A stretch of DNA of 64,000 bases from a phage, in sequence record NC_100327.1; one strand, 5' to 3'. The notes under the pieces were generated by a model that searched no databases, had not been told where the DNA came from, and worked only from the letters and a program-made list of their open reading frames with translations. The position numbers and the translations under genes are program-made. Positions 1-39,850 of the stretch are shown here, piece after piece (the stretch's first letter is position 1; each line of letters starts with the position of its first letter).

Positions 1-127
1 GGCGGACGAAATGGGAATACTTCTCATTCTTATAACAATTCTCAAATATCAAGGCAGTGAGGCAAATTAATAGGCTAGGCCGTTCACACAGTGGCACAAC
101 ATTTGCAACCTATCTTGTGGGAGTGAA

Positions 128-161
128 TGAGAATACCTATCATTGTGAGAATAGTTATCAT
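128..161. repeat. Two tandem copies of a 16-bp motif GAGAAY-N3-TATCATT
   Basis: gagaatacctatcatt at 128-143 and gagaatagttatcatt at 146-161; the same motif recurs at 11440-11455 and 11576-11591. Confidence 0.5.
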
Positions 162-494
162 TACGGGCAATTTAACATAATACCCATTATGCGCACCACT
201 GGCGATACATACAGGGATTGATAACATGGGTTACTGTTTACGCACATAACAATTATATTTCTTATTATTTGTGGGGGATATAGTTAGCAGCCAATAGATT
301 AGATATTGACCTGCAGACTTCTGACCGTCCAGACGTCTAAACGCCCACACAACAAGGATTATACATACAACACTGAATGTAAACAGGACCGCAAAAATGC
401 TACCATACAAGCTTGTAAATTTTTCATGCAGCACTTGACAAAGAGGAGAAAAACTTGTCTGACATAATGTGACCTAACTGACACAACATGACAC

Positions 495-590
495 TTTTAC
501 ACACCTATTAGTTTACACACTGGATTGTTTACATTCCTGATTGTTCACATGCTAACCATTTACATGATTGACTGTTTACACACCGATAAT
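495..590. repeat. Array of six direct repeats, core TTTACA(C/T)A, about 16-bp period (iteron-like; resembles DnaA-box 9-mer TTWTNCACA)
   Basis: Cores read at about 495, 512, 528, 544, 559 and 575; lies in a non-coding region. Confidence 0.5.
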
Positions 591-591
591 C

Positions 592-845
592 AGCCATGCC
601 ATTCGTTTGCATGACAATAATTATACATGACAATAATCGCACTGATTATAATTAGCATGACATAATATAAAAGCAGGGCAACTATTAGCAGATCTATAGT
701 TGCCTTGCTTGTTATGTCATAATTAACTAAATACAAGGCAACTATGATCTGATTAATAGTTTGCAGACAAACTATCACGGGGGTGATGGTTACTGCTTTT
801 ATATTATGTCGCGACTCCGTCGCGCCATGCCATTCGTTTGCATAG
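592..845. repeat. Pair of 20-bp direct repeats flanking a palindrome-rich segment
   Basis: gccatgccattcgtttgcat at 592-611 and 826-845; between them ggcaactat...atagttgcc palindromes and catgacaataat repeats. Confidence 0.5.
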
Positions 846-1449
846 TTGCCTTATTGTTACGAATAAAACAATTGCATTGTTAATGATTTCTTATCTTTCT
901 CTTAGTCATCTAATGATTCCAGTCAGTATAGTAATGTACAGTAAACATTAGACGACTAAAGATTTCTCTGTTTATTATAACTCACCGTTATAATTTCGAG
1001 CTGTTTACGAAAAATGTTGACATCCTAGCCGATTTATGTTATGCAGTTTACACGAATAATTATTTTATGCAGGTATTGACTATTCCGTTATTCTATGGTT
1101 GGAATAAATACTTAGCAGGCTATAGACTGGTGAGCGTACGTAAATTCTGAGATCTGGCGGCTATAGTTATACTCGATTTTTCACGTAGAACACGCTTTTG
1201 TGGTTATGTAAGTGCATGACTTATAAAGATTTTTAGTTGTTGACAAGATATTGGAGATGTGCATCAGGTTAAAATTTGTGCAATAGCGGCATTACGTGCA
1301 ATTTTGGAAGGTAAAACGGGTAAAAATGGCCTTGCTACCACACAATGAAAAATTATGCAATAGTTATTTTCCATGTATATTTGTACAGTGTGTGGGATTG
1401 ATGGCTCGTCAATTATTCCACTTGCCAGGTAGGGCCGTTTATGGTAGGA

Positions 1450-1486
1450 AAAGAGAAGACAAAAAGAAAGGGGCTTTAAGCCCCTG
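1450..1486 (-). terminator. Rho-independent terminator ending the early gene block
   Basis: Minus-strand hairpin aggggcttaaagcccct followed by TTTCTTTTTGTCTT, directly after the 1505-1768 stop. Confidence 0.6.
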
Positions 1487-1504
1487 ACCGTTCATCTTGT
1501 TGTA

Positions 1505-1768
1505 TTATTTGTTGCTCATCCAGTTTTCCCAAGCTGCCTGATAATCTGCCTCACTACGGCGGATCTCTTCTTGTTCTTCAAGTCGGATCTCTTCTTCCAG
1601 GTACCCCAAGATGTCAGCCTTTTTGGTCTGGCGTAGCATCCAGTCATCTTTTTTGCGGGTAAAGATCTTATAAGCTTTCTCGCAAACCTCTTTTTTGCTA
1701 CCTTTCTGGACTTCCAGAACACGATAAGCCATATATTGAACTAGTTTGAGCTGGTCAAGACGTTTCAT
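1505..1768 (-). CDS. hypothetical early protein (87 aa)
   Basis: ORF-track ORF; RBS AAGAGGAAAAACATC before the ATG; terminator downstream. Confidence 0.5.
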   Translation of the reverse strand: MKRLDQLKLVQYMAYRVLEVQKGSKKEVCEKAYKIFTRKKDDWMLRQTKKADILGYLEEEIRLEEQEEIRRSEADYQAAWENWMSNK

Positions 1769-11040: not shown

Positions 11041-11339
11041 CGATTATTTTAAATTATTTTTATGATAGAATCCACCTGCCGCCCCCGCCAGGTTAACCAC
11101 CATTTTTTCGTACTCTTCTTTATGTTCCCGCGCTTCTGTATCATTAATCACTACATTTCCAGGTGAGTAGCATTACCTTTCATTTTTGTACCTCCTCTTC
11201 AATTGTTTACCCTACAGCATGGGCCTACCAGGTTTGCAAGATTTCACCCTCTCCCACCTGGTCAGTTAGGTCCTGCCAGGCTGGCCCCGCCAGGTTGCAG
11301 CGGTTAGCGCATCAGGTTAGAAAAATTTTTTGAAAAGTG

Positions 11340-11368
11340 TTGACAGCGGCCCCGACAGGTGGCACAAT
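11340..11368 (+). promoter_or_regulatory. sigma70-type promoter (TTGACA, 17 bp, CACAAT) reading into the non-coding region
   Basis: Plus-strand hexamers; GC-rich element copy B begins about 15 nt downstream. Confidence 0.4.
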
Positions 11369-11382
11369 ATACCTATCGAAAG

Positions 11383-11420
11383 GACGGCAGGCACCGGTGA
11401 CGGGGGAGACAACCACCAGG
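11383..11420 (+). promoter_or_regulatory. Conserved GC-rich promoter-proximal element, copy B
   Basis: ggacggcaggcaccggtgacgggggagacaaccaccagg; followed at 11440-11455 by GAGAACGGTTATCATT. Confidence 0.5.
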
Positions 11421-11483
11421 GATGAGCGCTGCATAAAATGAGAACGGTTATCATTATCATTTAAAAATTTATGCAAAAAATCC

Positions 11484-11511
11484 TTGCTTTCTTTGTCCTG
11501 TGTGATACTAT
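11484..11511 (+). promoter_or_regulatory. candidate sigma70-type promoter (TTGCTT, 16 bp, TACTAT; overlapping TATAAT)
   Basis: Plus-strand hexamers just upstream of GC-rich element copy C. Confidence 0.35.
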
Positions 11512-11526
11512 AATAACAAGCCGGGG

Positions 11527-11568
11527 CAACAGGGGCCGGGAGACAATCACCGGGCCTGCCCGTTATTC
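11527..11568 (+). promoter_or_regulatory. Conserved GC-rich promoter-proximal element, copy C
   Basis: caacaggggccgggagacaatcaccgggcctgcc; followed at 11576-11591 by GAGAATGATTATCATT. Confidence 0.5.
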
Positions 11569-11707
11569 TGCAAACGAGAATGATTATCATTCAAGATTCT
11601 AAATGAGAACTCCTCGCATTTAATAAATTTAATTAGCACGCTAATTACCCTCCGTAACAATTTACTATAAAATAGTATCCACTAAAATATTCCCATATAG
11701 AAATTTT

Positions 11708-38872: not shown

Positions 38873-39850
38873 ATGAATCTTGAAAAATATTATACACCAG
38901 AAGAGTTAGAGCGCTTGCTCAAAAAATATAGACGCAAACAGAATAACGCACGGAAACGAGATATAGAGTTCGACCTGTCATGGGAAGAATACCTCCTATT
39001 TGGTAAAAAACTTTTAGGAGATGGAGTATGCGACTATACCCTTATACCTTTTGACATGCACACAGATGAAAACGGGCTGGGGAATCCTTTCTACCCATCC
39101 CTGGAGCGGATAGATGATGAAGGTCCTTATGCGGTTGATAACTGTTGTGTGGTGGGATTGAGATGCAACTCTCTAAAGGACTGTCTGGTAGATAAAAAGA
39201 CTGCAGTCTTGATTAAAGACGAAACTGATCGAAAAATTGTCCAGCAGATGATGCTCCACCTGAGCGAAGAGCGTATGGAGAAATTGAAAGGTGATTATAC
39301 TTTTGAAGATTTCATCTTGCAATATGGAACGGAAGAGGATAAACTAGCACTCTTTGACGAAGAAGAGGAGGAAGATATGCTACCGATGTCTAAAGTTACT
39401 TATCGTGCACCCAAGAAGCACATTTCCGACATTGTAAACGAGCCTATCACAGAAGAGATTGAAGAAATGACGCAACAGGTGCATGAAGAGGAAAAAGAGA
39501 CTCAGGAGGTCGAAGAGGAGCTTACAGAAGAGGTTCCTGCACTACCTGATGATGTTGAGATTGCCAAAGCTTACACTTTCTATTGTCAAACGTTCTACGA
39601 TGTAGGTATGAAAGTTGATCTGTCGTTCAGCCAATTTAAGAGTTCGTATATTCGCAAATGCTGTGCTTTAACTGGTGAACGTCTTGGAGCTGGACTTAAA
39701 CCCCTGTTGGTGACCGACTGGAATAAAGGTTTCACTAAAGGAAACTTTATGGTAGTATCTCCGATTATGGAGAAAGCTATGACAGATCTTATGAAGACCA
39801 CCCGCATGACAATGACCGAGTTGGCAGGTATTTTCAAACACGTTAAATAA
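38873..39850 (+). CDS. hypothetical protein; the track ORF starts at 38807 but the ATG at 38873 is more likely
   Basis: The track N-terminus overlaps promoter hexamers; Cys cluster C..CC..C in the N-terminal half; internal MSKVTYRA coincides with the inverted repeat. Confidence 0.45.
   Translation: MNLEKYYTPEELERLLKKYRRKQNNARKRDIEFDLSWEEYLLFGKKLLGDGVCDYTLIPFDMHTDENGLGNPFYPSLERIDDEGPYAVDNCCVVGLRCNSLKDCLVDKKTAVLIKDETDRKIVQQMMLHLSEERMEKLKGDYTFEDFILQYGTEEDKLALFDEEEEEDMLPMSKVTYRAPKKHISDIVNEPITEEIEEMTQQVHEEEKETQEVEEELTEEVPALPDDVEIAKAYTFYCQTFYDVGMKVDLSFSQFKSSYIRKCCALTGERLGAGLKPLLVTDWNKGFTKGNFMVVSPIMEKAMTDLMKTTRMTMTELAGIFKHVK
39381..39409. repeat. 29-bp perfect inverted repeat, right copy
   Basis: Exact reverse complement of 37519-37547. 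Confidence 0.7.

Follow-up and report, generated by a model that had tools for sequence, protein, structure and literature searches.

A putative T7-type concatemer junction beside the 459-bp terminal repeat of Vequintavirus phages

We analyzed the beginning (positions 1–1500) of a 64,000-nucleotide stretch of phage DNA from sequence record NC_100327.1, hereafter referred to as the window. As judged from its close relatives, the DNA belongs to a Vequintavirus genome, whose exact 459-bp direct terminal repeat (DTR) has its left copy at window 1–459. Positions 460 to ~830 are the flank of a concatemer junction and contain two arrays of short repeats and a large palindrome. The best reading of this layout, plausible and tentatively held, is that of a T7-type concatemer-junction module for cutting the genome ends and duplicating the DTR. 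The anatomy, known to us from sequence comparison, favours a role in packaging or end formation over that of an origin. Support for the junction reading comes, among other features, from a repeat array flush with the DTR boundary, symmetry between the two boundaries, T7-like anatomy and palindromes in three other genera. The locus would belong to the T7-type terminal-repeat junction family and represent no new kind of system. The DTR has already been published for the genus. In the literature that we searched we found no account of the arrays, of the palindrome or of the boundary symmetry, and no described function or transcriptome data for the region.

The terminal repeat and its boundaries

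A search of phage records with window 1–1500 returned 119 matches of 85–99% identity, nearly all of them Vequintavirus (rV5-like E. coli myoviruses of ~137 kb), and nucleotide-level similarity stopped at this genus. For EdH4 and Gotham we compared both record ends directly and obtained an exact 459-bp DTR, which corresponds to window 1–459 (95–96% identity). The Gotham record itself annotates a repeat_region at 1–459 and a second copy at the right end. Terminal repeats of 459 bp with one packaging start have been published for Gotham (PMC7471380), as have terminal redundancies of 458 bp for EdH4 and HdK5 (PMC6563267). Moreover, four records from four countries and different laboratories (EdH4, Gotham, YN3 and bov11CS3) start at window base 1, indicating that the ends are fixed and non-permuted. 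The mapping of physical ends, proposed in the first-pass annotation as a check, has thus already been done for close relatives, and the suggestion of a terminal-repeat region made there was correct. In a concatemer the left junction reads ...GGAGTGCTGCCA/GGCGGACG... and the right one ...GAAAAACTTGTC/TGACATAATG..., where the slash marks the boundary and, at the left junction, base 1 follows it.

The rV5 paper draws the same locus, between genes 163 and 164, as a ‘non-coding’ box without open reading frames (ORFs); its authors reported skew changes at 104,425–105,475 and took the genome to be circularly permuted (PMC3606486). Their description mentions neither the DTR nor the arrays or the palindrome. 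Records deposited in another permutation show that the non-coding stretch runs ~1 kb further left of window base 1 and that the whole of it sits between convergent gene blocks. There are ~100 Vequintavirus records in arbitrary circular permutations, and the type phage, rV5, has been called circularly permuted. The conserved end (...TGCTGCCA/GGCGGACG...) together with the 459-bp repeat makes it possible to re-orient these records and compare them correctly. Vequintavirus phages are also common in therapy cocktails and in the BASEL collection, and packaging cis elements matter for engineering them.

The DTR is well conserved within the genus (mean identity of 94.9% over 15 relatives), and two parts of it can be traced further. 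The block at 170–204 was matched in Septuagintavirus A73 (E = 0.004) and Mydovirus KPP-1 (E = 1e-4) and is visible in Seunavirus PVP-SE1 (L084 1174–1205). The layout of the right DTR end (434–459) is identical in KPP-1, DP, PVP-SE1 and A73, except that the purine-rich run of A73 lacks TTGACA. The left-end motif, TGCTA/GACGGAC or TGCCA/GGC..., is likewise common to the window, KPP-1, PVP-SE1 and A73, and copies of a motif AATGAKAAT...TTATCATT occur in KPP-1 and PVP-SE1. For KPP-1 a 514-bp DTR has been published on the basis of twofold coverage, with PhageTerm indicating T7-type packaging (PMC9862379). The Mydovirus repeat of this length is confirmed independently by the annotated repeat_region of phage DP and by the KP12 record, which starts at the same base.

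When each DTR boundary is read along the strand that has its 3' end directed into the repeat, the two turn out to be inverted copies of 5'-TGYYA/RRC. In Vequintavirus the left boundary reads TGCCA/GGC on the top strand and the right one TGTCA/GAC on the bottom strand; the corresponding KPP-1 sequences are TGCTA/GAC and TGCTA/AAC, and the right boundary of DP is TGTTA/AAC on the bottom strand (its left boundary lies outside the DNA examined). Over positions -5..+3 the boundaries agree at 6/8 positions in Vequintavirus (null P = 0.005) and at 7/8 in KPP-1 (null P = 0.0006), values that are optimistic, as this interval was chosen after seeing the sequences. The TGYYA motif also occurs on both DTR flanks in inverted orientation: bottom-strand copies are found at 460, 479 and 489 versus one top-strand copy in 460–600, and some relatives have extra top-strand copies to the left of the DTR.

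Repeat arrays and palindrome beside the boundary

To characterize the arrays we compared 18 Vequintavirus genomes, representing 16 distinct array versions, with the first copy of a 20-bp direct repeat as the alignment anchor. The array that directly precedes the 16-bp array and is missing from the first-pass annotation (A-type) consists of units that read TGTCA on the bottom strand; in other words, it is the boundary motif repeated. In 18/18 genomes its first unit begins at the base immediately following the DTR. Across the genus the motif scan gave 1–7 copies, with a spacing of 9–11 bp in 39/51 intervals, and the array opens with TGACAY units.

The second (B-type) array had been described as six direct repeats with core TTTACA(C/T)A at 16-bp spacing. 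All six units are present, with spacings of 16, 16, 16, 15 and 16 bp, so that one interval departs from the stated period, and the proposed core fits only three of them (TTTACACA), the other three being TTTACATT, TTCACATG and TTTACATG. The shorter core is TTTACA in five units and TTCACA in one. There are 54 plus-strand copies of TT[TC]ACA in the window, and six of them within 88 bp correspond to a Poisson P of 2e-10; the autocorrelation at shift 16 is 0.51. The genus consensus is T.A..GTTYAC, with spacings of 15–16 bp in 46/87 intervals and from 1–2 (bov11CS3) to ~11 (JES2013) copies of GTTYAC. The 16-bp periodicity is thus a property of the genus, with the number of copies left free.

Single array units are also found outside the array. 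CTGTTYAC or GTTTACA occurs at 234–245, 379–386, 1001–1008 and 1046–1052, that is, in the DTR and in the conserved non-coding part. The 64 kb contain six CTGTTYAC sites, of which four fall within 1–1470 (P = 1e-5), including those at 234 and 379 inside the DTR. KPP-1 and PVP-SE1 have one copy each of GAC(A/T)GTTTACAC, and this single occurrence suggests that the array may have arisen by amplification of one ancestral site. When IMG/VR was scanned for exact matches to the 15-mer CATTCGTTTGCATGA, 59 loci came up, almost all by chance and only one (L028) from Vequintavirus; the comparative data are therefore drawn from GenBank phage records. When GTTTACA was compared by eye only with the consensus sites of PhoP, LexA, TyrR, OmpR and IHF, none fitted both the spacing and the two half-sites.

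The same repeats had been labeled DnaA-box-like in the first-pass annotation, which would make them host DnaA boxes of a DnaA-dependent origin or a DnaA titration site. Within the window there is some basis for this: compared with the DnaA consensus TTWTNCACA, one unit is exact (495–503) and two (at 511 and 574) have a single mismatch. The remaining three carry 3–4 mismatches. Over the genus the resemblance fades, as just 15 of 103 units are within one mismatch of the consensus and four genomes have no unit below three, so that the idea of a DnaA-box cluster conserved among relatives had to be rejected. Moreover, the conserved array core is GTTYAC, not the CACA half of the DnaA box, and the positions following it are variable. 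The label is thus not supported, and the DnaA reading, which the comparative data appear to have largely refuted, is hardly credible.

Taken together, the two arrays are a hypervariable island in non-coding DNA that is otherwise as conserved as the neighbouring genes. The distance from the DTR end to the conserved block GATAAGCCATGCCATTCGTTTGCATGA ranges over 90–244 bp across the 18 genomes, and the interval 460–592 is unalignable in 11 of 15 relatives. The identity of the remaining non-coding DNA is like that of protein-coding sequence (95–98% for two neighbouring genes). On the other side of the DTR, within the 20–100 bp that precede its left boundary, GGAGYGCTGCC is duplicated locally (one to three copies among relatives), and unrelated insertions are present in Alma, rV5_ev156 and JEP1. 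From these duplications and insertions and from the variable arrays it follows that both DTR flanks are indel hot spots and that the DTR itself is stable.

Such variability raises the question of whether the arrays have any sequence-specific function. They might be slippage or recombination products next to a site that is nicked and resynthesised in each packaging round, with only the DTR and the palindrome being functional. The length variation against surroundings conserved at 94–100%, the variable duplications on the other flank, and the absence of arrays from Mydovirus and Seunavirus would all fit. However, the unit cores are conserved and the spacers are not (1.1–2.0 bits per position in GTTYAC versus 0.1–0.6 in most flanking positions, one of which reaches 1.0). 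In addition, the periods are held at 9–11 and 15–16 bp across the genus, and a minimal set of units is kept in 18/18 genomes. We regard this explanation as distinctly unlikely.

Beyond the arrays lies the palindrome. The first-pass annotation had listed several ggcaactat/atagttgcc palindromes; these do exist, but they were not recognised as arms of one near-perfect palindrome of ~155 bp. Copies of GGCAACTAT are located at 677 and 737, those of ATAGTTGCC at 696 and 842, and a degenerate copy at 756. The structure also includes a side hairpin (770–791) and a small hairpin (810–824). Folded as DNA, it has an energy of -52.7 kcal/mol (z = -10.9). The RNA folds of the two strands are equally good (z = -9.2 and -8.9) and the main stems have no G-T pairs, which together favours DNA-level symmetry. 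All 18 genomes keep the outer 18-bp inverted repeat exact. Variation is mostly confined to the apical loop, where LL12 and typing phage 5 carry an insertion of 32 bp, and the mean identity of 660–830 to relatives is 96.4%. Covariation analysis was precluded by this similarity, as palindromes of the genus are 97–100% alike save the two genomes with the loop insertion. The 20-bp direct repeat bracketing the palindrome is exact; its coordinates in the first-pass annotation (592–611 and 826–845) were off by 1–2 nt (593–612 and 824–843).

Large palindromes are present at the same relative place in the three other genera. In KPP-1, PVP-SE1 and A73 (the DTR boundaries of the latter placed by motif similarity), a perfect 16–21-bp inverted repeat bounds a large element 200–600 bp inside the left flank, with z = -10.0 for KPP-1 and z = -5.05 for A73. 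These palindromes share no sequence similarity, suggesting that it is the structure rather than the sequence that is conserved. After the palindrome, GTCGC...CGCGCCA and then a direct-repeat element also occur in A73, KPP-1 and PVP-SE1. In A73 the palindrome is preceded by three CTCTTTGTGG units at 20–23-bp spacing and an AT-rich stretch. It might be, though we think it unlikely, that Vequintavirinae share a conserved cis module for exact terminal repeats, made of inverted TGYYA/RRC nick sites and a palindrome 200–600 bp inside the left flank, and that Vequintavirus amplified the nick motif into a phased array.

These elements can be combined into the following mechanism. Replication would produce concatemers with one DTR copy per junction. 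Terminase would then nick after TGYYA on opposite strands at the two boundaries, so that both 3' ends point into the repeat. Strand-displacement synthesis from these ends would copy the repeat and provide each daughter genome with a full DTR, as in the staggered-nick model for T7. The TGACA array, presenting the boundary motif on one helix face with a phase of ~10 bp, would probably serve to load or position the cutting enzyme. Accessory binding and structural roles might fall to the 16-bp GTTYACA array and the palindrome, the counterparts of the T7 short-repeat array and hairpin-forming inverted repeat. Being genus-specific and tolerating from 1 to ~11 copies, the 16-bp array would have a modulatory role and would not be a precisely built machine. 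How exact terminal repeats are generated is poorly understood even in T7, and both the inverted boundary motif and the conserved palindrome offer testable sites for this step.

The principal alternative is an iteron-type origin next to the DTR. An initiator of phage or host origin would bind the 16-bp repeats, melt the AT-rich stretch at 610–658 and load a gp4-like primase-helicase, with the palindrome as an auxiliary element as in the lambda ori. Six regular direct repeats, an AT-rich segment with its own short repeats and a large palindrome do make up the classic layout of such origins, and this counts against the junction reading. In terms of duplex stability, the 150-bp segment that starts at 850 ranks second lowest in 64 kb and the one that starts at 611 third lowest. 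A73 keeps this order with repeats of its own, CTGTTYAC sites are dispersed over the region, and the rV5 authors were unable to place the origin by skew analysis (PMC3606486). On the other hand, known iteron origins do not vary from 1 to 11 copies, and sites spaced by 16 bp lie alternately on opposite sides of the helix. The 50 kb of CarlMeissner that contain the replication genes have no annotated initiator (only helicase, primase/helicase and DNA polymerase; most genes there are hypothetical), and the flanking genes belong to PHROGs of unknown function. An origin also gives no reason for the first array to begin right at the DTR boundary and to consist of copies of the boundary motif. T7-like replisomes, furthermore, classically start from transcripts rather than iterons. 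We consider an iteron-type origin possible but on the unlikely side.

Other observations weigh against the T7-type junction as well. The right end of the genome lies outside the 64 kb, and the DTR of the window is assigned from relatives that are 95–99% identical. The boundary motif is just 8 nt long. T7 boundaries have no comparable symmetry (1/8), so the analogy with T7 can be anatomical only. There is no array after the DTR in KPP-1 and PVP-SE1, and the A73 boundaries depend on motif similarity only. Since the array is absent from KPP-1 and PVP-SE1 and its copy number varies from 1–2 to ~11, it cannot be essential to a conserved mechanism.

Table 1. Features at the left end of the window. 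Positions are those of the window; the slash marks the DTR boundary.
Feature	Position	Strand	Description
Left copy of the DTR	1..459	none	Equals the exact 459-bp repeat at both ends of EdH4 and Gotham
Two tandem TGAGAAT-N3-TATCATT motifs	128..162	plus	18 bp apart; imperfect palindromes resembling the Fur box
Most deeply conserved DTR block	170..204	none	ATTTAACATAATAC...TTATGCGCACC; aligns beyond the genus
Conserved right DTR end	434..459	none	TTGACA, purine-rich run, CTTGTC/
A-type array	460..494	minus	Four TGAC(A/C) units at 460, 470, 479, 489; period ~10 bp
B-type array	495..590	plus	Six (G)TTYACA units at 496, 512, 528, 544, 559, 575
20-bp exact direct repeat, copy 1	593..612	plus	GCCATGCCATTCGTTTGCAT; closes the arrays; kept in 18/18 genomes
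AT-rich stretch	610..658	none	CATGACAATAAT twice (610, 626), CATGACATAAT at 656; varies among relatives
Near-perfect palindrome, ~155 bp	655..830	none	Outer 18-bp inverted repeat 659–676/793–810; inner arms 678–714/724–764
20-bp exact direct repeat, copy 2	824..843	plus	GCCATGCCATTCGTTTGCAT; directly after the palindrome
Conserved non-coding DNA	831..1465	none	Mean identity 93.7%; no conserved ORF
Intrinsic terminator	1469..1485	minus	Ends the leftward early block; equals rV5 terminator t164; annotated in EdH4, Gotham, Murica

Remaining non-coding DNA and neighbouring genes

The first-pass annotation found no credible gene in the region, and the comparison bears this out: none of the ORFs of at least 36 amino acids in 1–1500 combines an intact frame in every one of the 18 genomes with a codon-like pattern of variable sites. 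The ORF at 838–951 is intact in 18/18 genomes, but its variable sites are distributed 6/9/4 by codon position. The non-coding DNA to the right of the palindrome contains TTGACA at 1017 and 1239, AAAAWTTRTGCAATAG at 1271 and 1348, and an inverted repeat (902–923/938–959). A scan for sigma-70-like promoters showed no excess (7 observed versus 7.4 expected from shuffled sequence), and, as judged by eye, none of the isolated perfect TTGACA hexamers (434, 1017 and 1239) is accompanied by a usable -10 element. No promoter is predicted in the region in Table S4 of the rV5 paper either. Rfam covariance models gave no match at the gathering score (best E values of 0.54 and 0.64), and no tRNA was found.

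The two tandem GAGAAY-N3-TATCATT motifs within the DTR and their recurrence in the 11-kb non-coding hub were confirmed: the 64 kb contain four copies of the pattern, at 129, 147, 11440 and 11576, and all of them are on the plus strand. KPP-1 and PVP-SE1 have related copies. Compared with the 19-bp Fur consensus GATAATGATAATCATTATC, these sites match at 13/19 (129), 14/19 (147), 16/19 (11440) and 15/19 (11576) positions. Three of them are among the best four consensus matches in 64 kb, and all copies have G instead of T at position 3. A joint-best match (16/19, GGTAATGATTATCTTTTTC) is located on the minus strand at 2632–2650, at the junction of two small early genes. The hub itself is a ~900-bp non-coding region inside a minus-strand gene block. 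Its part at 11300–11620 has promoter-like sequences on the plus strand (TTGACA at ~11341 and TTGCTT...TATAAT at ~11485–11515), each followed by a GC-rich hairpin-prone stretch of 60–90 nt and then by a Fur-box-like site (11440 and 11576, with a degenerate third at ~11605). The hub also shares AAAAWTTRTGCAA with window 1271 and 1348. Its elements may represent genes for small RNAs or a cluster of promoters under regulation.

These motifs open the way to a regulatory interpretation, in which the motifs are operators for regulators of the phage or the host, Fur-like boxes among them, and the palindrome is a bidirectional terminator or a roadblock to convergent transcription. Consistent with it, the GAGAAY-N3-TATCATT motif recurs only in the hub, beside promoter-like sequences, and is among the best Fur matches; terminators are annotated within the palindrome in the Alma and Murica records; and the region lies between convergent gene blocks. 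Nevertheless, the promoter scan gave no excess over shuffled sequence, the rV5 authors predicted no promoter here, and a good terminator at 1469–1485 already ends the early block. The branched 155-bp palindrome, closed by a perfect stem of 18 bp, exceeds the size of a terminator by far, and arrays flush with the DTR boundary are left unexplained. Overall, we find transcriptional control or insulation improbable.

In a concatemer the DNA just left of window base 1 is the right-end flank, which we could inspect in pangalan (L001 2020–3000). It contains four copies of CCTGAAGAG (at 2372, 2785, 2821 and 2923). The same motif is found in the right-end flank of PVP-SE1 (GCCTGAAGAG, four copies, three of them in tandem at 23–24 bp) and is present in KPP-1. 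This conserved repeat outside the window is a candidate terminase recognition site. Within the same pangalan flank, a good sigma-70-like promoter (TTGACA-16-TAAAAT) on the plus strand is followed by ~250 nt of purine-rich structured non-coding sequence (2150–2440), for which there was no Rfam match.

To the right of the non-coding region, many relatives have an extra 420-bp gene (139 amino acids, PHROG 12277, unknown function), flanked by the terminator on one side and by the homologue of the 87-amino acid gene on the other (window 1486–1505). It is present in JohannBauhin, LL12, JES2013, MaxTheCat, JEP1, Murica, typing phage 5, EmilHeitz, YN3 and bov11CS3, and absent from the window, pangalan, EdH4, Gotham and Alma. 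The 87-amino acid protein (1505–1768, minus strand) is named ‘DNA translocase FtsK’ in several records. Since it has no significant Pfam match and belongs to PHROG 11701 of no known function, this name looks like a spreading annotation error. Finally, 18 GenBank records of the MG0656xx series are deposited as ‘Campylobacter phage’ (host Campylobacter jejuni) and are 87–97% identical to E. coli Vequintavirus across the region; it is likely that their host label is wrong or that samples were mixed.

Comparison with known systems

The lambda ori consists of four 19-bp iterons, an AT-rich segment and a palindrome. The window has a similar succession of regular direct repeats, an AT-rich and easily melted stretch and a palindrome. 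It differs from this and other iteron systems in the 16-bp period, in having 1–11 copies among close relatives, in the array that abuts the DTR boundary, and in that no initiator gene was found among the annotated and neighbouring genes. Packaging sites provide another parallel. P1 pac has seven TGATC(A/G) hexamers, and lambda cosB contains R sites, which are repeated terminase recognition elements. As in these systems, copies of a short motif adjoin the predicted cut site, and here it is the putative cut motif itself that is repeated in the A-type array. The difference is that P1 and lambda use headful or cohesive-end packaging, whereas exact direct terminal repeats are formed here.

The closest resemblance is to T7. 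In the T7 record the terminal repeat (1–160) is followed by ~12 CCTAAAG units with a 13-bp period at 175–340; its right end has, in this order, an inverted repeat centred at 39,588, short repeats and the terminal repeat. Both systems thus have a short exact DTR without genes and a short direct-repeat array beside it (window 460–590 versus T7 175–340). Both also have an inverted repeat ~200 bp outside the repeat, beyond the array: its centre is 190 bp away in T7, and window 659–810 lies 200–351 bp from the boundary. As for a T7-like short repeat common to both flanks and the inside of the DTR, TGYYA is found on the flanks in inverted orientation, CTGTTYAC lies inside the DTR, and the right flank has its own CCTGAAGAG.

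There are also clear differences. The orientation is mirrored, with the DTR, the arrays and the palindrome here belonging to the left-end flank. Vequintavirus is a 137-kb myovirus without its own RNA polymerase, and its repeat is 459 bp long compared with 160 bp in T7. Two arrays (10- and 16-bp periods) are located on one flank, whereas the T7 arrays SRL and SRR flank the repeat. The palindrome is ~155 bp and near-perfect, in contrast to the T7 arms of 19 nt with 79% complementarity. The staggered-nick model reportedly goes back to Watson in 1972, and Chung, Nardone and Hinkle are said to have proposed in 1990 that the T7 inverted repeat serves as a hairpin intermediate in the duplication of the terminal repeat. 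If the Vequintavirus palindrome were likewise a hairpin or cruciform intermediate, it would provide a second system, tractable in E. coli, for T7-type repeat duplication.

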